A DNA stretch of 64,000 bases from contig DATESQ010000009.1 of assembly GCA_035283985.1 (NCBI GenBank), forward strand, positions 953 to 64,952. The letters run 5' to 3'. Positions 4,301 to 63,066 of the stretch are shown here, in pieces (the stretch's first letter is position 1; each line of letters starts with the position of its first letter). Made by a program: the position numbers and the translations under genes. The DNA is from Thermoplasmata archaeon (GTDB lineage Archaea; Thermoplasmatota; Thermoplasmata; RBG-16-68-12). The notes under the pieces were generated by a model that saw only the letters and a program-made list of their open reading frames with translations, did no database searches and was not told the DNA's origin.

Positions 4301-6177
4301 TCATGAAGGTCTTCGACGCGGCGACACAGCAGGTCAAACAGGGATCTCGGAGAAGGGGTGCTAACATGGGAATTCTGCGGGTGGACCACCCGGACATCCT
4401 TGAGTTCATCACGTGCAAGGACGACATCCGCGAGATCACGAACTTCAACATCTCGGTCGCGGTCACGGACGCCTTCATGGAGGCTGTGCGGACGTCGGAG
4501 AAGTACGACCTCGTAAGCCCGCGTACGGGCAAGGTCGTGAGCCAGCTCGACGCCCGCGAGGTGTTCGACAAGATTGCGCACCAGGCCTGGAAGAACGGGG
4601 AGCCCGGGCTCTTCTTCATCGATGAGACGAACCGGCGGCAACCGACGCCCCACATCGGCATGATGGAGGCGACAAATCCCTGCGGCGAACAACCTTTGTT
4701 ACAATACGAATCTTGCAACCTTGGGTCGATTGACTTAGAACGGCACATGGCCCGCGGCTCGGGCGGTCGCTGGGACGTCGACTGGAAGAAGCTCGAGCGG
4801 ACCGTGCGGACCGCGGCGCGCCTCCTCGACAACGTGATCGACATGAACGCGTACCCCGTGAAGCAGATCGAGGAGATGACGATGGCGACCCGCAAGATCG
4901 GACTCGGCGTGATGGGCTTCGCCCGGATGCTGTTCATGCTCGAGGTGGCGTACGACGCCGAAGAGGGCGTCGAGTGGGGCCGGCGGGTGATGAAGTTCAT
5001 CAAGGACGTCGGCTACGACGAGAGCGCGAAGCTCGCGGCGGTCCGGGGCCCGTATCCCGCGTGGACCGGTTCCCGCCACTGGGAGCAGGGCGTCAAGGTC
5101 CGGAACTCGTACGTGACGACGGTCGCGCCGACGGGTACGCTGTCGATGATCGCGGACACGTCCGGCGGTTGCGAGCCCGAGTTCTCCCTGATCTGGTTCA
5201 AGCGCGTGATGGAGGGGGAGCAGCTTCCATATTCCCTCGCGTACTTCGAGGATGTCGCGAAGCGAGAAGGCTTCTGGACGCCGGACCTCGTGCACCGGGT
5301 CCTCGAGAACGGCGGCCGCGCCCGCGGGATTAGCGGGGTCCCGCAGAAGTGGCAGCGCGTCTTCGCGGTCTCGTTCGACGTCGCGGCCGAGTGGCACGTC
5401 CGGATGCAGGCCGCGTTCCAGGATAGTTCTGACAGCGCGGTAAGCAAGACGATTAACCTGCCCCGCGAGGCGACGGTCGAGGATGTGAAGAAGGCCTACC
5501 TCCTCGCGCATGAGTTGAAGTGCAAGGGGATCACGGTGTACCGCGACGGGAGCCGGGAGGACCAGGTCTTGAACGTCGGCGTCTCGGGGGCGGAGACGGT
5601 AAAGCCCGCCGAGGCGAAGCCGGTCGAGGTCCCAACGATCACGCGGCCCCGCCGGCGGCCCGCCGTGATCACGGGACGAACGCAGAAGATCCTCACGGGC
5701 TACGGCCCGCTCTACGTGACCGTCAACGAGGACGACAAGGGCCTTTTCGAGCTGTTCGCACAGATCGGCCGCGGCGGCGGGTACACTGCGAGCTTCACGG
5801 AGGGCCTCGCCCGACTCGTCTCACTGTGCCTGCGGTCCGGCGTGCCCGTCGACGAGATCATCGACCAGCTCGAGGGGATCCGGAGCCCGCGACTCGCACT
5901 CGACCACGGGGAGCGGATCTTCTCGATTCCGGACGCGATTGCGAAGGCGATCAAGCGGCACATCGGAATGCAGCGGACGGGAACGGTCCCGCCGATCGAC
6001 TCGTTCGACGCGGAGGTCGGCAGCGTTCCCGTCGACGACGAAATCGAGAAGGAGGCGCAGCAGGCGCCGGACCTCGTGAAACGCGGGCTCAACCCGGAGT
6101 GCCCGGAGTGCGGGCGCACCCTCATCCTCGAAGAGGGCTGCGCGAAGTGCCGGTATTGCGGGTACTCGGAGTGCTGA
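1333..6177 (+). CDS. nrdJ: Class II (adenosylcobalamin-type, monomeric) ribonucleotide reductase precursor containing two inteins
   Basis: The 1614-aa ORF has exteins matching archaeal/Thermoplasma-Pyrococcus-type NrdJ (PNSPTLMNAGLELQQLSA..., EATNPCGEQPLLQYESCNLGS), including the C-terminal Cys-rich zinc ribbon CPECGRTLILEEGCAKCRYCGYSEC. Two Cys...HN-bounded insertions interrupt the catalytic core. The mature protein would be about 785 aa. Confidence 0.9.
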   Translation: MLKLEPTLDLIAGEPDPRLSENALRVLERRYLRKDETGKVTETPRELFWRVAWNLAQADRTYGATEEQVLEAAKSFYRLMANLEFLPNSPTLMNAGLELQQLSACFAAGTAVSTIAGPKPVEEIVVGDLVLTHRGRYRRVVATMRREAPVRRVKIHRLPAMFATEEHPFLTPEGWVRAGDLVGRHVRVGSAAEVVTRTEIEFEAEVDGDLVYRRKTGRSEASVARHRVLGARSLQVKPVKAHVHLDEEIGWFFGMYLAEGEINPTLRAARFTLGLHEQATADRLASILRNRFALDSEITHVVDAPTSWISVRVQSKIFCEWLAGEFDRGFASKRLPDWIHETPAEFRTGLLQGVADGDGTHVNVNQTRITLSNEGLVRQLFELGVGLGHAPAMKPEYMPANATARPWSITLGGKPMYVRDGAYLVESVESVEGVTTVYNLEVEEDNTYVANGVVVHNCFVLPVEDSLAGIFQTLKESALIHQSGGGCVAGDSHVFTTFCGVERLETLYERIRTLGAPEEVRQGHRVMDISSLGVRTFAVNPATGRFDTKQVTHLWSWDVPAENQYRIRCSDGTEVTTSEWHPFLVMTEDGIVERRADALQPGDVLLGPNRSVRDAWPFTSYLEQEGFVLDEPLAWLIGFFLGDGSLDWFQNRKVGYRALRLRLFDGRPENIRFAREVLAAHGILVTPQQDRRGLWSLTTTDAGFVPRLARLAQSGPGPKVALTMPEWVAKSPLSVVAAFLGGLIDSDGYVSLDRRRLEFSTVCPELANRLVSLLSALGFNPSIRAKAPGPRAKLVEYRLHMADAKRTPELVSMVRAWVHDPFRGHRLDLLTERVAHNTHTRIPLPFTLLEKLLRAAGVETRGTAIHKSAVAVGDVQLWLHRAKWGDGIGEDKLRQLVQALRSVTSEQSSPLLELLEHLAGGWTAVEAVERPAEPKAFYDLTVADFNNYLAGGGLGKMAVVHNTGFSFSRLRPKNDFVRSTMGVASGPVSFMKVFDAATQQVKQGSRRRGANMGILRVDHPDILEFITCKDDIREITNFNISVAVTDAFMEAVRTSEKYDLVSPRTGKVVSQLDAREVFDKIAHQAWKNGEPGLFFIDETNRRQPTPHIGMMEATNPCGEQPLLQYESCNLGSIDLERHMARGSGGRWDVDWKKLERTVRTAARLLDNVIDMNAYPVKQIEEMTMATRKIGLGVMGFARMLFMLEVAYDAEEGVEWGRRVMKFIKDVGYDESAKLAAVRGPYPAWTGSRHWEQGVKVRNSYVTTVAPTGTLSMIADTSGGCEPEFSLIWFKRVMEGEQLPYSLAYFEDVAKREGFWTPDLVHRVLENGGRARGISGVPQKWQRVFAVSFDVAAEWHVRMQAAFQDSSDSAVSKTINLPREATVEDVKKAYLLAHELKCKGITVYRDGSREDQVLNVGVSGAETVKPAEAKPVEVPTITRPRRRPAVITGRTQKILTGYGPLYVTVNEDDKGLFELFAQIGRGGGYTASFTEGLARLVSLCLRSGVPVDEIIDQLEGIRSPRLALDHGERIFSIPDAIAKAIKRHIGMQRTGTVPPIDSFDAEVGSVPVDDEIEKEAQQAPDLVKRGLNPECPECGRTLILEEGCAKCRYCGYSEC
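1645..2703 (+). mobile_element. Intein 1 in nrdJ (353 aa) with a LAGLIDADG homing-endonuclease domain
   Basis: It begins with Cys immediately after QQLSA (CFAAGTAV...) and ends ...NGVVVHN followed by Cys (CFVLPVEDS). It contains two LAGLIDADG-like motifs (WFFGMYLAEGE and LLQGVADGDG). The boundaries were computed from the ORF frame. Confidence 0.8.
2791..4218 (+). mobile_element. Intein 2 in nrdJ (476 aa) with a LAGLIDADG homing-endonuclease domain
   Basis: It begins with Cys after HQSGGG (CVAGDSHVF...) and ends ...GKMAVVHN followed by Thr (TGFSFSRLRP). Its LAGLIDADG motifs are LIGFFLGDGSL and FLGGLIDSDGYV. Only a 29-aa extein separates it from intein 1. Confidence 0.8.
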
Positions 6178-11635: not shown

Positions 11636-12604
11636 ATGGCGGGCGATATCCTTGTGGTCGCAGAGCACCGGGACGGCAAGCTCGCCGGCGCGACGTTCGA
11701 GCTCGTCGCCCTCGGCCGTTCCCTCGCGCGGCAGAGCGGAGGGACCGTGAAGGTCGCGCTTCTCGGCCATGGCGCCGCTATTGCGCCGAGGCTCGCGGAG
11801 TACGCGGATGTCCTCGCCGTCGACGACCCACACCTCGAGCACTACTCCCCCGGCGGCTATGAGCAGGCCCTCCACGCGATCGTCGAGTCCGTCTCGCCCC
11901 GCGCGATCCTCCTCCTGCATTCGTCCCAGGGCTTCGACCTGGCCCCCGCGCTCGCGGTGGCCTTCGACGCCCCGCTCGTCACGAACTGCGTCGCCCTCGT
12001 GTTCGATGGACCCGTGCTCGTCGCGACGCGAAAGATTCTGAATGACAAGGTCGTCGTGGAGATCGAGGTGTCGAGCGAGCGGCCGTACCTCGCGACCGTG
12101 CGACCCGCCGCCGTAAAAGCCGCGGAGCCACTGCCCTCATCCGCGACGGTCACGCACATGCACGTCTCGATCGACCCCGCGAAGCTCGGGGCGACGTTTC
12201 TGCGCGCGGAGAAGCCAGAGGTCCAGGACATCGACATCGCCACCGCGGACATCGTCGTCAGCGCGGGGCGCGGGATCAAGGAGAAGAAGAACCTCGCGCT
12301 CGTCGAGGAGTTCGCGAAGCTCCTCGGTGGCGTCGTCGGTGCGTCCCGCCCGCTCACGGACATGGAGTGGCTCCCGAAGACCCGCCAGGTCGGTCAGAGC
12401 GGGAAGACCGTGCGGCCGAAGCTGTACATCGCGTGTGGGATCAGCGGCGCGATGCAACATGTATCGGGGATGAAGGACGCGGGAACGATCATTGCGATCA
12501 ACACGGACCCGAGCGCACCGATTTTCGAGGTCGCGCACTACGGGTTTACGGTGAACGTCCTCGAACTCCTCCCGGCGGCGATGAAGGAGCTGAGAAGCGG
12601 ATAG
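11636..12604 (+). CDS. etfA: Electron transfer flavoprotein alpha subunit
   Basis: The FAD-binding C-terminal motifs are VSAGRGI...PKLYIACGISGAMQHVSGMKDAGTIIAINTDPSAPIF. Confidence 0.85.
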   Translation: MAGDILVVAEHRDGKLAGATFELVALGRSLARQSGGTVKVALLGHGAAIAPRLAEYADVLAVDDPHLEHYSPGGYEQALHAIVESVSPRAILLLHSSQGFDLAPALAVAFDAPLVTNCVALVFDGPVLVATRKILNDKVVVEIEVSSERPYLATVRPAAVKAAEPLPSSATVTHMHVSIDPAKLGATFLRAEKPEVQDIDIATADIVVSAGRGIKEKKNLALVEEFAKLLGGVVGASRPLTDMEWLPKTRQVGQSGKTVRPKLYIACGISGAMQHVSGMKDAGTIIAINTDPSAPIFEVAHYGFTVNVLELLPAAMKELRSG

Positions 12605-21256: not shown

Positions 21257-22053
21257 GCGGGCGCTCCTGCCAGCCGCTTCGCGAGTCGCTGCTGTCCGAG
21301 GAGGGTCGCACCGAGCGCACCCGCGAGAGGCGTATCCGCCGAGACGTTCAGCGGTCGCCCGAGCCGGAGCTCGAGCGCGTGGACCATGGCGGGGTTCCGC
21401 GCGAGCCCGCCGGTCAGGGTGACCTCGCCGTCCCCGCCGACCTGGCGGAGGAGCGCGAGGACGCGGTCCGCGATCGAGAGGTGCGCGCCCATCAGGATGT
21501 CCTCCGCCGGCTTGCCCTGGCTGACGTGGTTGATCACCTCGGACTCTGCGAGGACCGCGCAGATGCTGCTGATCGGCTGCGGGTCCTTCGAGCGGAGCGC
21601 AACCGCTGGGAGCTCCTCGAGCGGGATGTCGAGCGCGCGAGCGACGCGTTCGAGGAACTTCCCCGCGCCCGCCGCGCATCGGTCGTTCATCTTGAACCGC
21701 ATCACATGGCCCCGGTCGTCCATCCGCACCGCGCGCGAGCTCTGGGCGCCGATGTCCAGGATGCACCGGGTGGCGGGGAACAGGAACCGCGCACCCCGCG
21801 CGTGGCACGTGACCTCCGTGATCTGGAGGTCGCGGTCCGGCAGCTGGTAGCGGCCGTATCCCGTCGTTGCGACGTAGCGGACATCGGATGGCGCAAGTCC
21901 CGCGCGACGGATCGCCTCCGCCAACGCCTCCCGCCCGGAGGCCTCCAGGTCCACCCGAGTCTTCACCGCGGCGGTGCCGAGCACGCCCCTCTCCGGGTCG
22001 TACAGGACCGCCTTCGTCGAGCCCGCGCCGATATCCACGCCCGCGGAGATCAT
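21253..22053 (-). CDS. CoA-substrate-specific enzyme activase (BadF/BadG/BcrA/BcrD; HgdC-like ATPase with a bridging [4Fe-4S] cluster), copy 2
   Basis: The N-terminal motif MISAGVDIGAGSTKAV, plus ITEVTCHARGA and the conserved Cys, indicate the acetate/sugar-kinase-fold ATPase. It starts at the internal ATG and overlaps the upstream activase by ATGA. Confidence 0.85.
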   Translation of the reverse strand: MISAGVDIGAGSTKAVLYDPERGVLGTAAVKTRVDLEASGREALAEAIRRAGLAPSDVRYVATTGYGRYQLPDRDLQITEVTCHARGARFLFPATRCILDIGAQSSRAVRMDDRGHVMRFKMNDRCAAGAGKFLERVARALDIPLEELPAVALRSKDPQPISSICAVLAESEVINHVSQGKPAEDILMGAHLSIADRVLALLRQVGGDGEVTLTGGLARNPAMVHALELRLGRPLNVSADTPLAGALGATLLGQQRLAKRLAGAPA

Positions 22054-22871
22054 CCGCTCGCCTCCGCCACAAGTTCCGTCGGCGGTGCGCCTCGAGCCCG
22101 CTCGAGGGCGTACAGCGCCGCGCCGATCGCGCCGACATACTGCGAGAGCGGGCTCACGTTCACCTTCGTCCCGAGCTGGCCTTCGAGCGCCTGCACCATC
22201 CCGACGTTTCGCGAGACTCCGCCCGTGAACGTCACCTCCGGGGTGATCCCGACCCGCCGCATGAGGGCGATCGACCGGATTGCGATCGCGTTGTGGACGC
22301 CCCTCAGGACGTCCTCGATTTTCTCGCCGCGGGCCATGTGGGACATGATCTCCGACTCGACGAAGACCGTGCACACGTTCGTGATTCGCAGAGGTTTCGC
22401 AGCCTTCAGGGAGATCGGGCCGATCTCGTCGATCGAGAGGCCCACCGCGAGCGCGGCGTTGTCCAGGAACCGCCCCGTCCCCGCCGCGCACTTGTCGTTC
22501 ATGCAGAAGTCCGTGACCTCGCCTCGCTCGTCCGCGCCAATCGCCTTCGTGTCCTGCCCGCCGATGTCCACGATTGTCCGTGTGCCGGGGAACAGGTAGT
22601 GCGCCCCCTTCGCGTGGCAGCTGATCTCGGTGATCTGCGTGTGCCCGAACGGGATCTTGAACCGGCCGTACCCGGTCCCGACGACGAACTCGACCTCGTG
22701 CTCGTCGATCTTCGCGGCCTCGATCGCCTCCTTGAACCGCCGCTGCGCGGCCTCCACGATGCTCGCGCCCGTCGGGCCGAGGGATGTCGCCGCGATCTTC
22801 CCCTCCCCGTCGAGAATGACGACCTTTGCCGTCGTCGACCCGATGTCCGCGCCCGCGACGTACACGTTCAT
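22050..22871 (-). CDS. CoA-substrate-specific enzyme activase (HgdC/BcrAD-family ATPase), copy 1
   Basis: The motifs VAGADIGSTTAKVVI, ITEISCHAKGAHYLFP, VDIGGQDTK and MNDKCAAGTGRFLD are present. Confidence 0.85.
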   Translation of the reverse strand: MNVYVAGADIGSTTAKVVILDGEGKIAATSLGPTGASIVEAAQRRFKEAIEAAKIDEHEVEFVVGTGYGRFKIPFGHTQITEISCHAKGAHYLFPGTRTIVDIGGQDTKAIGADERGEVTDFCMNDKCAAGTGRFLDNAALAVGLSIDEIGPISLKAAKPLRITNVCTVFVESEIMSHMARGEKIEDVLRGVHNAIAIRSIALMRRVGITPEVTFTGGVSRNVGMVQALEGQLGTKVNVSPLSQYVGAIGAALYALERARGAPPTELVAEASG

Positions 22872-24106
22872 CCCCCCAGGAGCCGCCGGTGGCTCAGGGA
22901 CTCGAAGAACGCGTCGATCCGGTTCTTCAGCTGGGCCTCGGAGTAGTACCGCGGGTCCGCGAGGTCCGATTCCACCATGAGGGTCGGGATCCCGTCGTTC
23001 TTGACGAGGACCTCCCGGAAATCCGCCTGGCCCACGGAGAACGACCGGCAGCTCTTTGTGGAATGGATCACGACCGCGTCCGCCTCGTACTCCTTCACGT
23101 ACCGCCGCAGGAGGTCGAGACGGAGCCCGAGATTCCAGTTCGTGTAGCAGTTCATCGCGTACCGCGCGATGCTCTCGAGCGGTTGCGCGGGATCGTGGAG
23201 AATCCCTTGGTCAAAGAGTCCGCCGACCTTCGAGTACGTCGACGCGACTCCGCAGACGCCCCACCGCTTGAACAGCTCCCAGAACGAGCGGAAGTGCGGC
23301 CACGGCGGCGGGCCCTCGAACACGACGCGGAACTTCTCCTCCGGGACGGGCCCGCGCCTCTCCTTCTGGCGAGCCCGGAGCTCCTCGAGGAGGAGCCGGT
23401 AGTACTCCACGCACCCCTCCGTCCCGCGGAGGATGTTCAGCGGAGCCATGTAGAACACCGCCTCGAAGTACGCGTCGTACGGCGACGGGTGGGACTGCGC
23501 GGTCTTCAGGGCTTCGACCCACAGCCGTTCCGCCTCCATGGACAGCTCGAGGGTCCGGCGGAGGCGACCCCGGTCGAACGGGACGCCGGAGATCCGGGCG
23601 CAAACGGTCGCGAGCTCCTCGAGCTGTGCGACAATGTAGTCCACGTCCTCCTTCGCAGCCTCCCGCTCCCGAAGGTACGGGATGTCGAGGACGAACAGCT
23701 CCGCATCGTAGAAGTGGGCGAGCGCCTCGAACCACTTCACGAACGTGTTGCACCCGGAGTAGTTGCACACGAGGAGGTCCGGCTTCGGGAGCACCCCGAA
23801 CGGGCTCTTCCGGTCGGAGAGCATCAGCCCGATGTCGTTCTTCACGTACCCGCACACGTCGCTCGAGTACCCGAGGTTCTCCGCGCGCAGGATCAGGTCC
23901 CCCGCCATCTTCTTAATCCCGCACTGGAGCGCGTTGATCTCCGGGTACACGGGGAGCATGTCGAAGCACCGCGTGAGCTCGACGACGTTCCCCGGGACGA
24001 ACATGTACGCGACCTTCCGTCCGTTCCGCCCCTCGTCGCTCAGGCTGCCGTAGTACTCGGAGAGCAGCCGCCTCTGGAGGTCCTTTCCCGCATCGCCATC
24101 GGTCAT
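22868..24106 (-). CDS. 2-hydroxyacyl-CoA dehydratase / benzoyl-CoA reductase family subunit (HGD-D; BcrB/BcrC-HgdAB-like), 412 aa
   Basis: The HGD-D family pattern includes conserved Cys-containing segments (LLVCNYSGCNTF, CNSGCVTNW). It is translationally coupled to its neighbours by 4-nt overlaps. Confidence 0.8.
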   Translation of the reverse strand: MTDGDAGKDLQRRLLSEYYGSLSDEGRNGRKVAYMFVPGNVVELTRCFDMLPVYPEINALQCGIKKMAGDLILRAENLGYSSDVCGYVKNDIGLMLSDRKSPFGVLPKPDLLVCNYSGCNTFVKWFEALAHFYDAELFVLDIPYLREREAAKEDVDYIVAQLEELATVCARISGVPFDRGRLRRTLELSMEAERLWVEALKTAQSHPSPYDAYFEAVFYMAPLNILRGTEGCVEYYRLLLEELRARQKERRGPVPEEKFRVVFEGPPPWPHFRSFWELFKRWGVCGVASTYSKVGGLFDQGILHDPAQPLESIARYAMNCYTNWNLGLRLDLLRRYVKEYEADAVVIHSTKSCRSFSVGQADFREVLVKNDGIPTLMVESDLADPRYYSEAQLKNRIDAFFESLSHRRLLGG

Positions 24107-24110
24107 GGTC

Positions 24111-25247
24111 TCACTCGAACAGGATCGATTCCACGAACGTCTCCACCTGCGTGCGCACCGTCTCGAACACGCTCATCTTCTCCTCGAACTCAATGTGGAC
24201 GTACGGGATCCCCGCCGCCTCGAGCCGCTCCTTGTACAACACCTGGTCGTACAGCGCGGGCTCGCAGAACTTCGCCGTGCAGAACACGACGCCCGTCGCG
24301 CCGATCGCCCGAATGCTCGCGGGGAGGTCATCTTGCTTCCGCCGCCCGCGGTAGTGGCTCACGGACGAGGCGGGGCTCTGCGTGACGTACGCTTCCGCGA
24401 GGGCCCGGAGCGGGTCGCCGTCCGCTGGGATCGGCTCCCGGAACCACCGGAGCCCGAGGAGGAGGTCGTCCTCGAGGACGTAGCACCCCGCCTCCTCGAT
24501 CGCGCGGATCAGGTCGATCGGCGGTTGCTCGCAGAACGCGCCGAGGAGGACGACACGGAGCCGGTCCTTCTCCTTCCGCCCCCTCCGCCTCGCGGCCGCG
24601 ACCGCGTTCCGGAGGAACTGCGTGTGCGCGTCCCGGTCCATCGTCGCCCCCGCCCGGAGCAAGAGGTAGCTCTCCCACGCGTCGAGGAGCCACGGCGTCT
24701 CCCGCCGCACGGCGAGGAGGTCTTGCGCCGCGCGGCGGTTCGCGTTGTGGGATTCGATCGCGGCCCGCAGGTCGGCCTCCGAGGCGGGACGGCCCGTCAG
24801 CCGGCTGAGCCCATTCAGAAGCCTCCGGTACTCCGCGATCGCGTAGGGCACGGCGCTCGCGCTGTCGCGGTTCTGCGGAAGGTGCAGGAACTCCACGAAC
24901 GTCTCCGGGAAGTTCCGCGACCACACCCCGGAGAGGTTCCGCGCGACGTCGCAAATCGACGGAAACACGAAGCCGTCAAGCGTGCCGAGGCGGGCGGTGA
25001 GGCCGAGCTCGAGCGTGGAGCGGGAGATCGAGCACACGAACGATTGGATACGGGAGTCTGCGTGGCTGATGTCGATCGAACCGCCCGCGCCGAAGAGCCA
25101 CACGGGCAGCGCCCCGACGGCCTGGATTAGCTCCGTGGGGACGTACACCGGGAACGCCCCGATCGCCTTCCCCGCGGGATGGCCTTCCTTCCACGTCCGC
25201 ACGGCGGAGAGCGACGTGTCCGCTACGGACTCGCGGGCGAAGGCCAT
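24111..25247 (-). CDS. 2-hydroxyacyl-CoA dehydratase / benzoyl-CoA reductase family subunit (HGD-D), 378 aa
   Basis: It is a second HGD-D paralogue (FPVYVPTELIQAVG...CDV...VVFCTAKFCEPALYD) and the first gene of the operon. Confidence 0.8.
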   Translation of the reverse strand: MAFARESVADTSLSAVRTWKEGHPAGKAIGAFPVYVPTELIQAVGALPVWLFGAGGSIDISHADSRIQSFVCSISRSTLELGLTARLGTLDGFVFPSICDVARNLSGVWSRNFPETFVEFLHLPQNRDSASAVPYAIAEYRRLLNGLSRLTGRPASEADLRAAIESHNANRRAAQDLLAVRRETPWLLDAWESYLLLRAGATMDRDAHTQFLRNAVAAARRRGRKEKDRLRVVLLGAFCEQPPIDLIRAIEEAGCYVLEDDLLLGLRWFREPIPADGDPLRALAEAYVTQSPASSVSHYRGRRKQDDLPASIRAIGATGVVFCTAKFCEPALYDQVLYKERLEAAGIPYVHIEFEEKMSVFETVRTQVETFVESILFE

Positions 25248-27604: not shown

Positions 27605-28279
27605 TTAACCTTTTGAAGCGGGGCGCGGCCGCTTCTCGTCCGCGTCGCACGCCGCGTACACGGGGCACACCTCACACCGCGGCCTTTGCGCTTGGCAGAT
27701 CTCCCGGCCGAAGTAGATGAGGGCGAGGTGGCCGTCCCGCCGCTGCTTCGGCGGGACGTATCGTCGCAGCTCCGCATTGATTCGCTCGTAGTCCGGAGCC
27801 GTTGAGAGGTGCCACCGCCGCGCGAGCCGCGCGATATGCGTGTCCATCGGCATCGTGTCGCGACCCGCCACGAGGCTCAGCCACACGTCCGCGGTCTTGG
27901 GTCCCACGCCCGGGAGACCGAGGAGCATTTCCCGAGCCCGCGGGGGCGGCGCCCGCAGGAACGCGTCCATCGTCCCGCCATGTGCATCCACGAGGAACCG
28001 GGCGATCTGCTTTATCCGCGGCACCTTTTGGCGGGCGAGCCCCGCAGGCCGGAGGATCCGGACGAGCGCCAAGGACCGCATGCCCGCCATTCGCATCGCG
28101 GTCACGGGTCCCGTCGCCGCGAGGTGCGCCATCACGCGCTCCGTGACGAGGTCCGTGGAGTTCTGCGAGACGATGATCGAGGCGAGCGCCTCAAAGGGGT
28201 CGAGGCCCTCCGCCCAGTTCCTCGGCCGGTACCGTTTCAGAAGAGTCCGGAGCACGCCGCGAAACGTCGGGACGTCCAT
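27605..28279 (-). CDS. nth: Endonuclease III (HhH-GPD glycosylase with a [4Fe-4S] cluster)
   Basis: The HhH motif LLGLPGVGPKTADV and the cluster ligands CQAQRPRCEVCPVYAAC are present. Confidence 0.8.
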   Translation of the reverse strand: MDVPTFRGVLRTLLKRYRPRNWAEGLDPFEALASIIVSQNSTDLVTERVMAHLAATGPVTAMRMAGMRSLALVRILRPAGLARQKVPRIKQIARFLVDAHGGTMDAFLRAPPPRAREMLLGLPGVGPKTADVWLSLVAGRDTMPMDTHIARLARRWHLSTAPDYERINAELRRYVPPKQRRDGHLALIYFGREICQAQRPRCEVCPVYAACDADEKRPRPASKG

Positions 28280-28324
28280 GGCTTGGCGTGGGACCGACAC
28301 ACGCGGCCTTGAACGTGCCGTCCC

Positions 28325-29275: not shown

Positions 29276-29995
29276 ATGGAGATTCTCCTTTTCCTGGGGC
29301 TTGCGCTTGCCCTAGGGTTCAAGCACAGCTACGACGCGGACCACCTTGTCGCGGTCTCGAACCTCCTCACCCGGAGCAAGAACCTCCGCCGGACGATCGC
29401 GATGAGCGTGAGCTGGGCGCTCGGTCATATGCTCACCGCCTCCGGCGTGACCCTCATCCTCTTCGTCTTCCGGGAGGCGTTCCTCGCGCAGTTCCTCGCA
29501 ATCTTCGAGCTTGCGGTCGCGGCGATGCTGATCGCAATCGGCCTCGTGTCCCTCACGTGGGAGTTCCGCGTCCTGCAGCGGCTCGGCCTCCTCCACGAGC
29601 ACCCACACGAACACCTTACGGGAGCGCACGCGCATCCACACTTCCACGTCCGGCGGTTCGGGGACCACGGCACCATGTTCGGGATCGGCGTCGTGCACGG
29701 CCTCGCGAGCAACGACGAGTTGCTCATCCTCCTGGTCGCGGCCCTCAGCGTCGCGACCCTCGGAGGCTTGCTGCTCGGAGTCGCCGTCTTCAGCGTCGGC
29801 GTCGTCCTCGGGATGGTCCTCTTCGGTATCGGTCTGAGCTATCCGATTGTGCGCTGGGGCGATGCGAAGGTTCGGCGGGTCACGACCGTCGTCACCGCGA
29901 TCCTGAGCATCGCGTACGGGATTCTTCTGTTCGCGGGCTTCGGGGGAATCAGCCTTCTGCCCTTCGTGACCGCCGAATGGTCCGCGAGGGTTTAA
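29276..29995 (+). CDS. NicO/RcnA-like nickel/cobalt transporter with a His-rich loop
   Basis: It is a 6-TM protein with the central loop HEHPHEHLTGAHAHPHFH. The family assignment is tentative. Confidence 0.5.
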   Translation: MEILLFLGLALALGFKHSYDADHLVAVSNLLTRSKNLRRTIAMSVSWALGHMLTASGVTLILFVFREAFLAQFLAIFELAVAAMLIAIGLVSLTWEFRVLQRLGLLHEHPHEHLTGAHAHPHFHVRRFGDHGTMFGIGVVHGLASNDELLILLVAALSVATLGGLLLGVAVFSVGVVLGMVLFGIGLSYPIVRWGDAKVRRVTTVVTAILSIAYGILLFAGFGGISLLPFVTAEWSARV

Positions 29996-30013: not shown

Positions 30014-30514
30014 ATGCCCGTGAACTTCCCGGATGCACTCGATCGCGCGACCTCGCTGCCGGACGTCTTCGAGATCGTAAAGCTCGCTGCGGAGCAGCAC
30101 GTCGGCCGGACCCGCGGCGGCCTGATGCTCGCGCTCGCGGACCTCGGAAATCATCCCCGCGGCTTCCTTGGAGCGTTCTACGTGATCGCCTCGAACGTGA
30201 TCGTGATGAACAAGGTGCCGCTCGTTCGGATCCGCGACACGCAGCCGCACCTGTACAACCACTACGCGTTCCACGTCCTCCTGCACGAATACCTGCACGC
30301 CCTCGGCTACGTCGACGAGGCCCGCTGCCGCCAGCTCGTGTACGACCTGAGCCACACGCTGTTCGGCGAGGATCACGCCGTGGCGCAGATTGCGAGGGAC
30401 GTGACCCGGTTCTTCCCGAGCCTCGTGTACCCGGACGCGGCGTGGCAGCCCGCGGACCTCAAGCTCGAGCTCGTCGCGAACTTCGACCGCGGGAACACGG
30501 GCTACATCGCGTAG
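30014..30514 (+). CDS. Hypothetical protein with an HExxH motif (possible small zinc metalloprotease)
   Basis: The motif is HVLLHEYLHALGY. No other recognisable family features were found. Confidence 0.4.
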   Translation: MPVNFPDALDRATSLPDVFEIVKLAAEQHVGRTRGGLMLALADLGNHPRGFLGAFYVIASNVIVMNKVPLVRIRDTQPHLYNHYAFHVLLHEYLHALGYVDEARCRQLVYDLSHTLFGEDHAVAQIARDVTRFFPSLVYPDAAWQPADLKLELVANFDRGNTGYIA

Positions 30515-32827: not shown

Positions 32828-33355
32828 ATGGCCGAGGCGATCGACTTCTGGTTCATCATCCTGCGCTGGATCCACTTCGTCGGCGGAATCACATGGATCG
32901 GGCTTCTGTTCTACTTCAATTTCGTTCAAGTGCCCACCTTCAAGGAGCTCGACGGCGCGACGAAGAATATCCTCATTCCGCGGCTTGTGAAACGCGTCCT
33001 GTTCTGGTTTCGATGGTCGGCGGTCGTCACGGTCCTTGCGGGTTGGCTGTACTTCCTATCGCGGTGGACGATTGACGGCTTCTCGATCACCGCATTGACG
33101 ACGGTGTGGTGGTACGTCTCGATCCTGACGGGCGGATTCCTGGGGACGTTCATGTTCGTGAACGTGTGGGGTGTGATTTGGCCGAACCAGAGGAAGGTGA
33201 TCTGGGCCACGGAGCAACTCGCGAAGGGCACGCCCCTACCTCCCGACATGCCGAAGTGGGGCCGGCGGGCCCTCATCGCATCGCGAATGAACTTGGCGCT
33301 GTCGTTCCCGATGCTCTTCTTCATGGCGTCGGCGAGCCACCTGACACTGATCTAG
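32828..33355 (+). CDS. Hypothetical 4-TM membrane protein, divergent from the cupredoxin
   Basis: It is a hydrophobic, Trp-rich protein (HFVGGITWIGLLFYFNF) with a GGCGGAGG ribosome-binding site. Confidence 0.5.
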   Translation: MAEAIDFWFIILRWIHFVGGITWIGLLFYFNFVQVPTFKELDGATKNILIPRLVKRVLFWFRWSAVVTVLAGWLYFLSRWTIDGFSITALTTVWWYVSILTGGFLGTFMFVNVWGVIWPNQRKVIWATEQLAKGTPLPPDMPKWGRRALIASRMNLALSFPMLFFMASASHLTLI

Positions 33356-33367
33356 GAGGTCCAGTGG

Positions 33368-33550
33368 ATGGCGTGGGGGATGGAGACGAAGTCGGGGTTT
33401 GGTTGGTCGGTGGCCGTTGTCATTGTCTTCTTGGTCGCGATTGTGGGCATGACCGGAGTTTATGGCTCCGCCCTAAGAACTCCCGCGATGCTGATTCTTC
33501 CCCTCTTGGCATACATCGGGTTTCTCGCGTGGGTTCGCCGCGTGAAGTAG
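33368..33550 (+). CDS. Small hypothetical 2-TM protein
   Basis: It is 60 aa with two hydrophobic helices and GGAGG 8 nt upstream. Confidence 0.3.
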   Translation: MAWGMETKSGFGWSVAVVIVFLVAIVGMTGVYGSALRTPAMLILPLLAYIGFLAWVRRVK

Positions 33551-33636
33551 CGCACCCGTTGTCGCCGAGCGCGACGAACGCGACAAACCAGAAGATATTT
33601 CTGCGAGGACCGTTTCGTTGCGGACGACGTGATTCG

Positions 33637-34137
33637 ATGTCATCATTGGTGAGCGCTTTGAAGCACCTTGGCGAGTCGATTGAACGGAAGCGGTCCCCAC
33701 GGGTTGCACATGCGCACTGCGACATTCCCTGCGGGATCTACAATTCGTTCCCCGCCATCCAAGCCGCGCAGACCGTCCAGAAGATGGTAGCACGGCTGAC
33801 GGACCTGAAGGAACCGACGGCGAGGGATTCCCAGGTGATGCTCGAATACCTGAACGCGGTTGCGCGCCACGTCCAGGTCAAGGAGGAGCACGCACAGCTG
33901 TGCAAGAAGGAAATCCTCATCCTGTGGACGGACTACTTCAAACGGGAGCACCTCGCGATGTTTCCGGACCTCCACGAAAAGGTGTGGACCGCCGCGAAGC
34001 TGTGTTCGAAGAACAAGCAAAGCGTGGACAGCAAGGCGGCGAGCGACCTGCTTGAGGCGGCCCACGAAATCGGGCACATGTGGGAGAAGGCGGAAGCCGC
34101 GAAGGCCGCGGCCGCAGAGGGACCGAGGCGTCGATAG
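33637..34137 (+). CDS. sodN: Nickel-containing superoxide dismutase precursor
   Basis: A 23-aa leader (MSSLVSALKHLGESIERKRSPRVAHA) is followed by the Ni-hook HCDIPCGIY, the defining NiSOD motif in which His1 becomes the N-terminus after processing. Confidence 0.85.
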   Translation: MSSLVSALKHLGESIERKRSPRVAHAHCDIPCGIYNSFPAIQAAQTVQKMVARLTDLKEPTARDSQVMLEYLNAVARHVQVKEEHAQLCKKEILILWTDYFKREHLAMFPDLHEKVWTAAKLCSKNKQSVDSKAASDLLEAAHEIGHMWEKAEAAKAAAAEGPRRR

Positions 34138-34139
34138 CG

Positions 34140-34553
34140 ATGGCTCGGTTCATCGTGCGCGGGAACAGCATGGAGCCAACCATCGAGTGGGGGCAGTATC
34201 TCCTCGTGAGCCGTCTCGCGTATCGGATCCGGAAGCCCGCTCGGGACGACCTCGCGATCGTCCGTCACCCGCTTCGGCATGGGTTTCTTCTCGTGAAGCG
34301 CGTCGTCGGCATCCCCGGTGACAACATCCGGTTGGAAGCCGGCGCGCTGGTGGTCAACAACATTGTCGTCTCCACGTCTCATGAAGTGCTACAATCGAAC
34401 GCGCAATGGCACCTCGCTGGGGACGAGTACTTCGTGTCGGGGGACCGAACCGACGGGAGCGCGGACAGCCGCGCCTTCGGGCCTGTGCCCCGATCCCTGT
34501 TCCTCGGGAAGGTGCGATCCCCGCGACGACGAGGACCCGGAGGCCGTGGGTAG
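34140..34553 (+). CDS. sodX: NiSOD maturation peptidase (signal peptidase I / S26 family)
   Basis: The catalytic Ser is in GNSMEPT and the catalytic Lys in VKRVVGIPGD. The gene is adjacent to sodN with a 2-nt spacer. Confidence 0.75.
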   Translation: MARFIVRGNSMEPTIEWGQYLLVSRLAYRIRKPARDDLAIVRHPLRHGFLLVKRVVGIPGDNIRLEAGALVVNNIVVSTSHEVLQSNAQWHLAGDEYFVSGDRTDGSADSRAFGPVPRSLFLGKVRSPRRRGPGGRG

Positions 34554-34635
34554 GTCATCCGGCTTCACGGCCGGCCCGTACTTTCACAACGTTCATGAGG
34601 ACTCGCCGCGTGGAAGGCGAAACGAGGGAACGCGC

Positions 34636-35112
34636 ATGGCGGTTGAAATCGGAATCCCAGAACGAAGTCGTGAGGCGGTCGTCCGAATTCTGAACGACAT
34701 TCTCTCCGACGAGTACGTCCTGTACACGAAGACGAGAAACTACCACTGGAACGTCGTTGGCCCACAGTTCAATGACCTGCACAAGTTCTTTGAAGCTCGG
34801 TACGAGGAACTTAACGAGATCGTCGACGACGTGGCGGAGCGTGCCCGTGCGCTCGGGGGACGGTCGCGGGCGACGATCGTGGAGTTTGCGAAGACTGCGA
34901 GGCTCAAGGAGCACCCCGGCGACTACCCAGGCGCCAAGGAGATGGTCGCGAACCTCCTCGAGGACCACGAAGCGCTCATCCGAACCTTGCGCATGGACTT
35001 GGAGGCGTGCGCGGAAAAGTATGAGGATATGGGGACGAACGACTTCCTGACGGGACTCATGGAGCGGCACGAGAAGATGGCGTGGATGCTCCGCGCGATG
35101 CTCGAGGGCTGA
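34636..35112 (+). CDS. dps: Dps (DNA protection during starvation, ferritin-like)
   Basis: The ferritin-like di-iron ligand spacing is present (NYHWNVVGPQFNDLHKFFE...ELNEIVDDVAER). GAGGG lies 8 nt upstream of the ATG. Confidence 0.85.
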   Translation: MAVEIGIPERSREAVVRILNDILSDEYVLYTKTRNYHWNVVGPQFNDLHKFFEARYEELNEIVDDVAERARALGGRSRATIVEFAKTARLKEHPGDYPGAKEMVANLLEDHEALIRTLRMDLEACAEKYEDMGTNDFLTGLMERHEKMAWMLRAMLEG

Positions 35113-35122
35113 AACTCGGCCA

Positions 35123-35821
35123 GTGCGAACGGCTTATATTCCCCGAAGAATCCGGAACGGGATGCGGACCCCTCGCTATCGCCATATCGAGGAACTACTG
35201 AGGGAGTACGCGGAGAAGCGGAACGCGATCCTCGAGCGGCTCACTGAGTTTCGCGCAATGTGGCACGAGCCGGACGAACGGCTTTTCGAGGAGGTGGCGT
35301 ACTGCATCCTTGCGATTCAAACGAAGGCTCGCGCGGCGGATGCGGCGGTCCGCGATTTGAAGGTGAGCGGCCTTCTCTATGAGGGAGATGTCGCTTCTAT
35401 CGCGAAGTTCCTCCGAAGCCGGACGCGGTTTCACAATCACAAGGCCGCGTATCTCGTTGCGGCGCGAGAGCGGTTCCGAGAGGACGGTCAGTGGGCTCTC
35501 AAGAAAATGCTCTCCTCGATTCCGGGAGCGGACGCGGCCCGCGATTGGCTTGTCCGCGAGGTCGACGGCTTCTCGATGAAGGAGGCGTCCCATCTCCTGC
35601 GAAACATTGGCTTTTCCGACGAGCTTGCGATTCTCGACCGTCACGTTCTTCGGAATCTCTACCGCCACGGCGTCATTCGTGCGATTCCCAAATCCCTCAC
35701 ACCCCGCCGATATCGCGAGATCGAGGCGCGATGGGGGCGGTTCGCGGAGGCCGTCGCGATTCCGGTCGCGGAGATGGACCTCTTGTTCTTCAGCCGCGGG
35801 GCGGGAGAGATTTTGAAGTAG
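35123..35821 (+). CDS. ogg: 8-oxoguanine DNA glycosylase / N-glycosylase-DNA lyase (archaeal Ogg2-like, HhH-GPD)
   Basis: The motif is GFSMKEASHLLRNIGFSDELAILDRHV. The start may be the internal ATG at 35162. Confidence 0.7.
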   Translation: MRTAYIPRRIRNGMRTPRYRHIEELLREYAEKRNAILERLTEFRAMWHEPDERLFEEVAYCILAIQTKARAADAAVRDLKVSGLLYEGDVASIAKFLRSRTRFHNHKAAYLVAARERFREDGQWALKKMLSSIPGADAARDWLVREVDGFSMKEASHLLRNIGFSDELAILDRHVLRNLYRHGVIRAIPKSLTPRRYREIEARWGRFAEAVAIPVAEMDLLFFSRGAGEILK

Positions 35822-35838
35822 CTGGCCCATCGTGTTTT

Positions 35839-36906
35839 GTGGACCTCGCGACGCCGCTCCTCGAGTGGTACCGCGCGAACCGACGCGACCTCCCGTTTCG
35901 CCGGACACGAGACCCGTACGCGATTCTCGTCGCGGAGGTGATGCTCCAGCGAACCCGCGTCGTCGCGGGTGTGCCGTACTTCGAACGGTTCCTTGCGGCA
36001 TTCCCCACGGTCGTGGATCTCGCGAAGGCCTCCGAGGAGGAGGTGCTCAAGGCCTGGGAGGGCCTTGGCTTTTACGGTCGCGCGCGGAACCTCCATCGCG
36101 CGGCGAGCGCGATTGTCGAGCGGTATGGCGGGCGCGTGCCGTCGCGATTCGCGGCCCTCCGCGAGCTTCCGGGGATCGGGGACTACACGGCGGGTGCGGT
36201 CGCAAGCATCGGGTTTGGTGAACAGGTCCCCGCCATCGACGGCAACGCCGTGCGGGTCCTCGCCCGCGTATTCCGGCTGCGAGGCGATCTGACCCGGAGC
36301 GGCGCGAAGCGGCGACTCCAAGGGATTGCGGCGTCGCTCGTCCCTTCCGATGAGCCCGGGTCCTACAACCAAGCCCTCATGGAACTCGGCGCCACGATCT
36401 GCATCCCGCGGGCGCCGCGATGTTCTCTCTGTCCGATCCGCTCGATGTGCGGCGCGTACGCGGAGGGGCGTCCCGCTGCCTATCCGGAGCCGCGTCGTGC
36501 AGCCGTGATACCGACCGTTCGCGTGGCGTTCGTCCTCGTCGAGCGGGACGGCAAGATGCTTCTCCACAAGCGGCCTGCCAAGGGGCTCCTCGCGGGATTC
36601 TGGGCGCTGCCGGGCGGGGAAATCGCCGATGTCTCAGACGAAACGGTGGCGTTGCGAACCGTTCTTCGTTCGATGGGCCTCCACGTCCGAATCGGAGATC
36701 CCGTGGCGCGCGTGGATCACAGATTCAGCCACCGCCGCTGGGAGGGTCAGGTCGTTCGCGGACGCCTCCGTGGGCGCCCGTCCTCGTCGCCCGAGTTCCG
36801 ATGGGCGTCCCTCGAAGAACTTCGGGATCTCCCCGTCGTCTCGTTCCACCGGCGAATCCTCGAGCGCGTCGCATTCCCGCCACGCAGGCAGACCCGCCTC
36901 GTCTGA
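35839..36906 (+). CDS. mutY: A/G-specific adenine DNA glycosylase with a C-terminal NUDIX (MutT-like) domain
   Basis: The HhH-GPD core is LPFRRTRDPYAILVAEVMLQRT. The [4Fe-4S] ligands are CIPRAPRCSLCPIRSMC. The C-terminal NUDIX-like segment is WALPGGE. A GTG start was chosen just after the ogg stop. Confidence 0.8.
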   Translation: MDLATPLLEWYRANRRDLPFRRTRDPYAILVAEVMLQRTRVVAGVPYFERFLAAFPTVVDLAKASEEEVLKAWEGLGFYGRARNLHRAASAIVERYGGRVPSRFAALRELPGIGDYTAGAVASIGFGEQVPAIDGNAVRVLARVFRLRGDLTRSGAKRRLQGIAASLVPSDEPGSYNQALMELGATICIPRAPRCSLCPIRSMCGAYAEGRPAAYPEPRRAAVIPTVRVAFVLVERDGKMLLHKRPAKGLLAGFWALPGGEIADVSDETVALRTVLRSMGLHVRIGDPVARVDHRFSHRRWEGQVVRGRLRGRPSSSPEFRWASLEELRDLPVVSFHRRILERVAFPPRRQTRLV

Positions 36907-36988
36907 CTCTAGTGCAATTCCTTCTCATCGAGTGGAATGTAGCGAAACGTATTTGTGCTGGCCGTGGCCTAGTTTTCCTGTGAGCGTG

Positions 36989-37162
36989 ATGGACCTCGAG
37001 GAGTCGTACACCGAACGCGGTGTGGCGGAAGAGCCGTCGCTGCGCCGGATGTATCGACACGTCGAGATTACGGAGGAGAACATCCGCATTATCTTCGGAA
37101 TGTCGATGGATGCATTCTTCGCGGCCGTCGCGCGAAAACTCGGGTACGCGATTGAAGGCTGA
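36989..37162 (+). CDS. Small hypothetical protein (58 aa)
   Basis: Only the C-terminal 58 codons of a longer Ser/Arg-rich ORF look protein-like (MDLEESYTERGVAEE...IRIIFGMSMDAFFAAVARKLGY). It is weakly supported. Confidence 0.25.
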   Translation: MDLEESYTERGVAEEPSLRRMYRHVEITEENIRIIFGMSMDAFFAAVARKLGYAIEG

Positions 37163-37206
37163 TGCTCGAGAAAGGCTTTCTAGCGACGCGCGCGTGACCC
37201 GGAGGG

Positions 37207-37797
37207 ATGCGACGGTTCATCGTCGTGGGACACCGAGCCGTGACTACGGCGGAGTTTCCTCTCAACGACCTCGCGGGTGCGGCGGGCCGCATGGACCTCC
37301 TGCTCAACGCCGCAAATGCCGCGCTCCTCGTGTCTCATGACCTGCGTCGGGACGTGGAAGTCACACTCCTTCTTCTCGGTCCTCCGGACCCGCCACGCGC
37401 GATTCGCATTCTTGGCGAACGGATCGAGCGATGGGGCCCGGACATCCGAGGCAATGCCGCGCTGATCCGGCGGGCCCTCGAGCACGGGTCCCGACTCGAG
37501 CGCGAAACCTCGCCAGGAATTTTCGCGAGCAAGCGCAGCCTCGAGGAGGTGTTGGCGGGAGTGCCGGAGCCCCTCGTCGAGCTCCTGGAGGACGGACACG
37601 ACATTCGCCAGGCCTCCCTCCCCCCCGACGTCGCGTTTCTTCTCTCGGACTCGGTCGACCTCACATCCGAGGAACGCGAGATCATTTCGAGGAAGAATCC
37701 CCTGGCATGTCGCGTGGGTCCGCGCTCGCTCCATACCGACCACGTGATCGCGATCATCCACAACGAGCTCGACCGGAGGTACGCGTCCGTCACGTGA
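37207..37797 (+). CDS. trmY: tRNA (pseudouridine54-N1)-methyltransferase TrmY (SPOUT, COG1901)
   Basis: It is close to archaeal TrmY throughout (RFIVVGHRA...DLAGAAGRMDLL...SHDLRRDV...HTDHVIAIIHNELD). Confidence 0.8.
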   Translation: MRRFIVVGHRAVTTAEFPLNDLAGAAGRMDLLLNAANAALLVSHDLRRDVEVTLLLLGPPDPPRAIRILGERIERWGPDIRGNAALIRRALEHGSRLERETSPGIFASKRSLEEVLAGVPEPLVELLEDGHDIRQASLPPDVAFLLSDSVDLTSEEREIISRKNPLACRVGPRSLHTDHVIAIIHNELDRRYASVT

Positions 37798-62403: not shown

Positions 62404-62577
62404 GTCCGAGGCGCCTCGCCCACAGAGGTATGCTGCCGGGCGTCAGTGCGACGTTGATCGCAAACAAATCGATGATCAGGAGTAGCCAGGCGGCATTTCG
62501 TCGACCTGAAGTTGTCAGCCGAGGAGGACGCTCAGCCTTTAACTGGGAATGGGATTCCTCATCTTCGGGACGGGGAA

Positions 62578-63066
62578 ATGGACGCGCTCACGGAACTTGC
62601 CGAGGAGCACGCGGACTTCGTCGAGAAGCTGAGCGAGCTCGAGGCCGCCCTCGACGAGATGATGGAGAGCCACGCCGCCTCCGACGAAGACATCGAGCTC
62701 GTCGAGGAGTCGATCCGGTTCTTCGAGGAGGAACTGCTCCCCCACTTTGAGCGCGAGGAGAAACATCTCCTCCCCGCCCTGGAGAGGAAGATCGGACGGT
62801 TCGGCACGCTCGTGAACGTCGTCGCGTACGAGCACGACGAAATCCGGCGGGAGGTTCACAAGATCAAGGAGGCCCTCGCGGCTCTCCAGGCGAAACGGCC
62901 GGCGCCGCACCTCGCGGAAATCGAGGAGCTGAACCGTCACGTTGTTTTCACCGTCCAGTTTCTCTGGGATCACTTCCGCAAGGAGAAGACGAGCCTCTTC
63001 GCGACGGCCCGAGAGGTGTTGAGTCCCGAGGAGCTCGAATCAATCGGCGTCCACTTGAGCGGGTAA
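62578..63066 (+). CDS. Hemerythrin-like (HHE cation-binding) domain protein
   Basis: It has repeated H/E ligand helices (EEHADF, HFEREEKHLLPALE, AYEHDEIRREVHKI). The start was set at the internal ATG; the ORF begins at a TTG at 62512. Confidence 0.55.
   Translation: MDALTELAEEHADFVEKLSELEAALDEMMESHAASDEDIELVEESIRFFEEELLPHFEREEKHLLPALERKIGRFGTLVNVVAYEHDEIRREVHKIKEALAALQAKRPAPHLAEIEELNRHVVFTVQFLWDHFRKEKTSLFATAREVLSPEELESIGVHLSG

Follow-up and report, generated by a model that had tools for sequence, protein, structure and literature searches.

A nickel superoxide dismutase gene in a Thermoplasmata genome

We analyzed a window of 64,000 nucleotides from contig DATESQ010000009.1 of a Thermoplasmata archaeon (GenBank assembly GCA_035283985.1); positions below are those of this window. 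On its forward strand lie sodN (33637-34137), predicted to encode the precursor of a nickel superoxide dismutase (NiSOD), and sodX (34140-34553), predicted to encode the protease that matures it. Genes for a Dps protein and two DNA glycosylases follow, and a candidate nickel permease is encoded upstream. Taken together, the analyses below make it very likely that this is a functional, canonical NiSOD system of bacterial origin that was anciently acquired by its archaeal host, with processing and activity predicted from sequence and modelled structure.

The sodN reading frame extends from an ATG at 33637 to a TAG stop at 34135-34137 and encodes 166 amino acids. Its product matches the Pfam family Sod_Ni (PF09055) with 132.6 bits (E 1.6e-38, cutoff 25) and passes the threshold of the NCBIfam equivalog model TIGR02753 (142 bits, cutoff 90). 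The Ni-hook HCDIPCGIY, from which a preliminary description of this DNA had recognized the protein as a NiSOD, is intact at residues 27-35 (33715-33741). In a phmmer search against the PDB, His1 of the mature Streptomyces chain (1q0d) aligned to SodN residue 27, and we therefore predict a pro-peptide of 26 amino acids (MSSLVSALKHLGESIERKRSPRVAHA, 33637-33714) that ends in an Ala-x-Ala (AHA) cleavage site. The mature enzyme (33715-34137, 140 amino acids plus the stop) would consist of the Ni-hook followed by a four-helix bundle. The 23-residue leader described earlier is obtained only from a TTG at 33646, and the start chosen by PGAP, a GTG at 33649, gives 22 residues. We prefer the ATG at 33637 because it aligns with an ATG kept in two relatives (SodN identity 77-79%). 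The leader had also been described as longer than the roughly 14-residue Streptomyces leader, but it is not unusually long for its branch of the SodN family: leaders of Chloroflexi, Patescibacteria and archaea in this branch measure 13-26 amino acids. In all 80 SodN relatives, the leader ends in xA directly before HCD (small-x-small, mostly A[HY]A), as expected of a cleavable leader, and cleavage itself is predicted to occur at this junction.

Structural comparisons gave the same picture. The AlphaFold2 (AF2) model of SodN, built on 54 homologues, has a mean predicted local distance difference test score (pLDDT) of 92.3 and contains a leader helix (residues 2-18) and four long helices. A Foldseek search of the PDB with this model returned NiSOD chains as the top 16 matches (target-normalised TM-score 0.80-0.87), and the first match after them had an E-value above 0.1. 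The anticipated four-helix-bundle pattern is thus present in the model. Across the alignment of SodN with 81 relatives, H1, C2, D3, P5, C6, G7, Y9, R39, W59, D61, and H67 are invariant. On these grounds, the open reading frame (ORF) at 33637-34137 is, as far as sequence and predicted fold can tell, a canonical NiSOD precursor.

SodX is predicted to be the maturation protease

The ATG of sodX at 34140 lies exactly 2 nt past the sodN stop, and the gene encodes 137 amino acids. The protein matches Peptidase_S26 (PF10502) with 100.9 bits. When aligned to structures of E. coli LepB, its GNSMEP motif (Ser10) corresponds to the Ser90 box, its KRVVG motif (Lys53) to the Lys145 box, and GDRTDGSADSR to box E, and the S26 boxes B, D, and E are all present. 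This agrees with the SodX arrangement that had been proposed from the Ser and Lys motifs and the 2-nt spacing. We detected no transmembrane (TM) segment in SodX (highest 19-residue Kyte-Doolittle mean 0.88). Because it lacks a hydrophobic segment and its catalytic Ser is residue 10, the protein is predicted to be a soluble S26A Ser/Lys peptidase and not a membrane-anchored secretory enzyme. An S26 gene is found near sodN in 61 of the 80 relatives, which come from many phyla (54 within 300 nt, 7 up to ~2 kb away). We read the gene as sodX because it lies 2 nt from sodN, because an S26 gene recurs at this place, and because the SodN leaders obey the Ala-x-Ala rule of S26 peptidases. These comparisons indicate that the product, HLA46118.1 in GenBank, should be read as SodX.

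The C-terminus of SodX differs from that of its closest relatives. Its final 12 residues (RSPRRRGPGGRG, 34515-34553) stand where those proteins have WFSYWPPxRWG. A frameshift was considered and rejected: the WFSYWPP tail is found in none of the three frames of the window, so the 3' end of sodX appears to have been replaced and not shifted.

The host is archaeal and the cassette has bacterial relatives

The genome had been described as archaeal, and the surrounding genes concur. The window encodes TrmY (201 bits), an archaeal-type Ogg and an HVO_0163-type helix-turn-helix (HTH) domain, and its GdhA has an archaeal GdhA as its best match. Exact-sequence look-up placed SodX, Gdh, NAPRT, and TrmY among the proteins HLA46088-HLA46125 of a metagenome-assembled genome (MAG) named 'Thermoplasmata archaeon', on a contig of 65,221 bp. 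Among 22 contigs that carry an identical SodN, the gene order was compared in six, each from a different metagenome sample, and it is the same in all six. Since these contigs were assembled independently, a chimeric assembly is excluded, and judging by gene content the host of sodN-sodX is an archaeon. The identification of the enzyme itself is not new, because the sodN product (HLA46117.1) is already named 'superoxide dismutase, Ni' by PGAP and NiSOD was reported in Lutacidiplasmatales in 2022.

Pfam and NCBIfam searches, direct or through precomputed matches, covered ~60 window ORFs, all but a few (the exceptions include one of 1831 amino acids), and among the ORFs covered there was neither an Fe/Mn-SOD or Cu/Zn-SOD nor a superoxide reductase. 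Both SOD types occur side by side in an unclassified archaeon of the low-GC lineage (L087, CAZYHQ010000002.1), where an Fe/Mn-SOD gene (11637-12251 of that contig) is 1.1 kb away from sodN and from a sodX of 90 amino acids.

We compared SodN sequences across GTDB species, each represented by a single genome. The closest sequence is from a Thermoplasmata relative (L007, 77% identity), and two genomes labelled 'uncultured archaeon' follow with 61% and 52%. Next are Patescibacteria and many Dehalococcoidia (44-58%) and one Aenigmarchaeota genome (46%). The 'uncultured archaeon' lineage has a GC content of 42-46%, and we consider it truly archaeal because genes for aIF2-alpha, PAC2, and class III signal pilins lie on its contigs. 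Family-wide, the search returned 7,072 NiSOD matches, which are overwhelmingly bacterial, and NiSOD has been counted in 1,464 bacterial species (PMC8346466). The preliminary description regarded the enzyme as typical of actinobacteria, cyanobacteria, and marine bacteria. This view is outdated: NiSOD occurs commonly among Chloroflexi and Patescibacteria, and a published study reports it from Thermoplasmatota (PMC9287336).

Neighbour-joining trees (Kimura distance, mature domain, 141 columns, 100 bootstraps) recovered the Thermoplasmata sequences as a clade in 82% of replicates, and this clade together with the low-GC archaea in 75%. The combined archaeal clade grouped with particular Patescibacteria in 12-32%. 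The Aenigmarchaeota sequence grouped with two Patescibacteria in 97-99%, and no replicate (0/100) made all archaea monophyletic. The archaeal SodNs nest among Patescibacteria and Chloroflexi sequences. Because the family is overwhelmingly bacterial and the archaeal sequences are nested and non-monophyletic, these analyses support a bacterial origin of sodN-sodX, with at least two predicted transfers from bacteria to archaea. The horizontal acquisition suggested earlier is therefore upheld by a phylogeny that includes the bacterial clades, with the addition that the transfer appears old.

The age estimate draws on synteny and base composition. We compared the window with five related contigs, namely L007 (a GTDB representative) and the metagenome contigs L089, L096, L097, and L098 (SodN identity 63-79%), and gene order around sodN-sodX is kept down to 63% identity. 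GC content at third codon positions (GC3) and codon adaptation index (CAI) are 0.80 and 0.56 for sodN and 0.78 and 0.56 for sodX, close to ogg (0.74 and 0.54) and trmY (0.77 and 0.57); the window means (± SD) are 0.85 ± 0.05 and 0.65 ± 0.08. A compositional signal of recent horizontal transfer was considered and rejected, as the block of low GC3 and CAI (33.4-37.8 kb) includes the archaeal ogg and trmY; sodN-sodX is not set apart from these neighbours. Because of the synteny and the shared composition, we interpret the transfer into Thermoplasmata as old: by these comparative criteria, sodN-sodX was acquired long ago and then inherited vertically in this lineage.

A conserved gene neighbourhood with a late dps insertion

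In the relatives, the order is an opposite-strand cupredoxin gene, a Urate_ox_N-like gene, a gene for a TM protein of 55-60 amino acids, sodN, sodX, and ogg, followed by mutY and then trmY where the contig extends that far (a mutY-like gene follows ogg in L007, L089, and L096). In the window, all on the forward strand, the corresponding genes encode a Urate_ox_N-like membrane protein (32828-33355; PF06181, 57.7 bits) and, immediately upstream of sodN, a 60-amino-acid protein with two TM segments in a TM scan (33368-33550). This pair is also present in L089, L096, L097, and L098. The Urate_ox_N-like protein has an H..GG..W motif in TM1 and could bind haem. Downstream are ogg (35162-35821), for an archaeal-type 8-oxoguanine DNA glycosylase (Ogg-HhH, 167.5 bits), whose start was set by alignment to L089 and L007, and, 17 nt past it, a gene for a mutY-like adenine glycosylase (35839-36906). 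The latter has HhH-GPD and NUDIX_4 domains by Pfam; its gene is identical in L001, and its product is 65% identical to that of the syntenic gene of L007.

The window departs from its relatives between sodX and ogg. In the five relatives, sodX and ogg either overlap by as much as 4 nt or are up to 31 nt apart, and dps is absent from the junction in all five. Here, the junction holds dps (34636-35112, forward strand), which encodes a Dps/ferritin-like mini-ferritin of 158 amino acids. The protein matches Ferritin (PF00210) with 109.6 bits; it reaches 84-85 bits against the NCBIfam Dps equivalog models, whose cutoffs are higher (114-170). Its inter-subunit ferroxidase residues (HW...LH...D...E) can be read in the translation (NYHWNVVGPQFNDLH...DDVAER). 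The gene is present in all contigs with an identical SodN. Dps proteins assigned to very different phyla share 70-80% identity with that of the window, whose closest relatives are encoded in other genomic contexts. Because dps is absent in the five relatives and the SodX tail is replaced at this junction, we interpret it as a species-specific insertion that remodelled the 3' end of sodX. The preliminary description had noted correctly that dps follows, but as a part of the arrangement it does not hold up: from the gene order, the conserved unit of the lineage is sodN-sodX-ogg(-mutY), and dps lies outside it as a predicted later insertion in this species only. The sodN-sodX-ogg-mutY arrangement resembles an operon, presumably co-transcribed, that would tie the removal of superoxide to the repair of 8-oxoguanine.

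About 39 nt before the sodN ATG lies an AT-rich block (CCnGAAnnTATTTCTnCG, 33588-33605, forward strand) that is kept in the window, L089, and L007 within an otherwise diverged GC-rich spacer. We read it as a candidate archaeal promoter element resembling a transcription factor B recognition element (BRE) and TATA box. A scan of 33300-37300, of a kind uninformative for an archaeon, found no sigma-70 promoters, and intrinsic terminators were at chance level.

A candidate nickel permease upstream

A gene at 29276-29995 (forward strand), 3,642 nt upstream of sodN, encodes a His-rich protein of 239 amino acids that is a candidate nickel permease of the UreH/SodT type, judged by homologue profiles, motifs, and synteny. 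We examined it through an alignment of 28 family members, made up of the window protein itself and 27 homologues that share 58-82% identity with it; many of these come from 'Thermoplasmata archaeon' records. NicO (PF03824) was matched by 20 of the 28 members (best E 4.7e-07) and DsbD_2 (PF13386) by 17. The protein carries an HX4DH motif (HSYDADH, residues 17-23) and seven invariant His residues at positions 107-131, within a His-rich loop (~105-131) between TM3 and TM4. A strict hydropathy scan gave four TM segments, and two stretches read by eye (1-15 and ~133-155) bring the total to six. The gene is syntenic in L089, and in one locus from Patescibacteria (L052) the gene of a weak homologue directly follows sodN. 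The earlier suggestion of a His-rich NicO-like transporter 3.6 kb upstream thus appears reasonable, with an inward direction of transport as the presumed one.

The gene that begins 18 nt after the permease candidate (30014-30514) encodes a 166-amino-acid protein with no family match and an HExxH motif (HEYLH). The two genes are kept as a pair in L089, and the second product may be a metal-related accessory protein.

Alternative explanations

The cassette could instead be a recently acquired island, or a bacterial fragment that was mis-assembled or mis-binned into an archaeal MAG. GC content does fall to 0.58-0.61 over 32.7-35.7 kb, compared with ~0.65-0.69 on both sides, and the GC3 and CAI of sodN and sodX lie ~1 SD under the window mean. 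However, the dip also spans the clearly archaeal ogg and trmY, the gene order is identical in each of the six metagenome samples, and the five related contigs keep it with archaeal genes on both sides, which together make recent arrival or artefact highly improbable. We consider it also quite unlikely that NiSOD is ancestral in these archaea and that any transfer went from archaea to bacteria. The SodNs closest to that of the window (52-80% identity) are indeed all archaeal, and two archaeal lineages of very different GC content form a single clade at 75% bootstrap. This has to be set against the overwhelmingly bacterial make-up of the family and a nested, not basal, position of the archaeal clade, with the Aenigmarchaeota sequence placed separately among Patescibacteria; the partner protease is, moreover, of the bacterial S26A type. 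The secretory signal peptidases known from archaea belong to the Sec11/ER type (Ser-His) and not to the Ser-Lys type, and a Ser/Lys S26A enzyme in an archaeon therefore fits co-transfer with sodN.

The same background bears on whether the S26 gene might encode an ordinary secretory signal peptidase I with no role in SodN maturation. SodX scores 58.3 bits against the SodX equivalog TIGR02754, under its cutoff of 63.25, and it passes the generic sigpep_I_bact model TIGR02227 (88.2 bits, cutoff 47). GenBank calls the product 'signal peptidase I', a label that we attribute to this narrow failure and pass. TIGR02754 has 90 positions, and SodX, a long form that contains an additional beta-hairpin region, matches the model in two stretches. 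The absence of an N-terminal membrane anchor, the position of the gene directly behind sodN here and its recurrence near sodN across phyla, and a SodN leader that has an Ala-x-Ala site and lacks a hydrophobic signal-peptide core all speak for a maturation protease, and we regard a secretory role as very unlikely.

The low TIGR02754 score and the GenBank name are among several points that weigh against a functional NiSOD system of bacterial origin. The window SodN has Ala and His in place of Glu17 and Arg47, which hydrogen-bond to His1 in the Streptomyces enzyme; all 81 relatives share both replacements, so we interpret them as typical of this family branch and not as a defect. The altered C-terminus of SodX could affect its stability, and it need not inactivate the enzyme because other SodX proteins are also short-tailed. 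A specific donor is only faintly indicated by a neighbour-joining tree on 141 columns with 12-32% bootstrap. The permease candidate itself has no Pfam match even at E <= 5; a direct Pfam assignment to NicO was rejected for this reason, and the homologue-level matches were used instead. Its features probably fit a UreH/SodT nickel permease, with the inward direction an assumption that cannot be read from sequence, and RcnA-type relatives are exporters. Finally, we know of no experimental data for any archaeal NiSOD.

A model for NiSOD maturation and its significance

Under the favoured reading of a functional, anciently acquired NiSOD system, SodN would be made as a 166-amino-acid cytoplasmic precursor. 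SodX, anchor-less and presumably co-transcribed with it, would cut after Ala-His-Ala, between Ala26 and His27. Once nickel is loaded, the Ni-hook could then form on a four-helix-bundle subunit from the amine of the newly exposed N-terminal His, the amide of Cys28, and the thiolates of Cys28 and Cys32, and the mature enzyme would dismutate superoxide. Nickel would probably be imported by the UreH/SodT-like His-rich permease encoded 3.6 kb upstream. The sodN-sodX pair, ogg, and mutY would act as an operon-like unit into which dps was inserted later in this species only.

A broader reading, which we put forward tentatively and consider possible rather than probable, is that sodN-sodX-ogg-mutY is one operon under an archaeal promoter that, with dps in this species and the SodT-like permease, forms an aerotolerance module put together by lateral transfer. 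Archaea would have received the bacterial cassette on two or more occasions, possibly by exchange with Patescibacteria in shared groundwater. If true, such a module would let a host with oxygen-sensitive 2-hydroxyacyl-CoA dehydratases live at oxic/anoxic interfaces. Two genes for HGD-D (2-hydroxyglutaryl-CoA dehydratase-type) subunits and one for a BcrAD/BadFG activator ATPase are found at 22050-25247. Dehydratases of the HGD-D type are oxygen-sensitive radical enzymes. The same contig encodes proline dehydrogenase, citrate synthase, an electron transfer flavoprotein (ETF), cupredoxin, and a cluster for defence against reactive oxygen species (ROS). This combination suggests life at oxic/anoxic interfaces.

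Other genes of the window are also related to oxidative stress, namely one for an endonuclease III-like HhH-GPD glycosylase (27605-28300, minus strand) and one for a hemerythrin-domain protein (62512-63066). The large subunit of a ribonucleotide reductase, encoded at 1333-6177 and 1,614 amino acids long, is interrupted by what appear to be two inteins, with Hint-type matches at residues 105-195 and with Intein_splicing and LAGLIDADG homing endonuclease matches at ~533-962. A 279-amino-acid protein encoded at 13108-13947 matches arrestin N- and C-domains (Arrestin_N E 6.9e-20; also Vps26) in this archaeal genome.

The locus provides a well-documented archaeal example of a metalloenzyme family usually treated as bacterial. 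It suggests that a cassette of an enzyme and its bacterial-type S26A protease was stably domesticated in Thermoplasmata and obtained by archaea more than once, and the sodN-sodX-ogg linkage gives a small hint of how anaerobe-derived archaea built oxygen defences. Knowledge of how NiSOD works is unchanged. The contribution made here is modest and comprises the reading of the partner as SodX, with the corresponding correction of the public annotation of HLA46118.1 from 'signal peptidase I', the unit sodN-sodX-ogg(-mutY) with a late dps, the linked SodT-like permease, and the at least two predicted archaeal acquisitions.

Comparison with known NiSOD systems

The predicted enzyme shares with the NiSODs of Streptomyces coelicolor and S. 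seoulensis (1T6U, 1Q0D) the Ni-hook H-C-D-x-P-C-G-x-Y and the four-helix-bundle fold, at ~27-29% identity in a structural alignment. Both systems have an N-terminal pro-peptide removed between Ala and His, a cleavage that is predicted here, and an adjoining gene for an S26 Ser/Lys protease. The window SodN differs in that 12 residues are inserted between its first and second helices and in the substitutions Glu17 to Ala and Arg47 to His. Its sodX is co-directional and 2 nt downstream, its host is archaeal, and its leader has 26 amino acids; the Streptomyces SodN leader has 14.

The NiSODs of Chloroflexi (Dehalococcoidia/SAR202) and Patescibacteria (CPR) are closer, with 44-58% identity and the A17/H47 variants common to both sides. 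Their leaders of 13-25 amino acids end in A[HY]A before HCD, as in the window, and CPR genomes also have a tight tandem of sodN followed by sodX. Unlike them, the window clade has NSFP instead of DPxxA after the Ni-hook and is linked to ogg and mutY. Its SodX is a long form of 137-160 amino acids, compared with 81-115 in CPR and the low-GC archaea.

Within Thermoplasmatota, Sheridan et al. (2022) listed NiSOD (K00518) among the stress-resistance genes of the order Lutacidiplasmatales (PMC9287336), which resembles the window in its phylum and its high-GC terrestrial genomes. That report gives an annotation at the KEGG level, without sodX, leader, synteny, or phylogeny, and we liken the window to it by description only.

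For the permease, the nearest parallel is the sodN-sodX-sodT cluster of marine cyanobacteria, in which SodT, a nickel permease of the UreH family, is encoded next to sodN and sodX; permeases of this family have six TM segments and a His-rich TM3-TM4 loop (PMC4284471). A six-TM protein with a His-rich TM3-TM4 loop is thus encoded near sodN and sodX in both systems. In the window, the permease gene is 3.6 kb away with five unrelated genes between, and the likeness to SodT is one of description.

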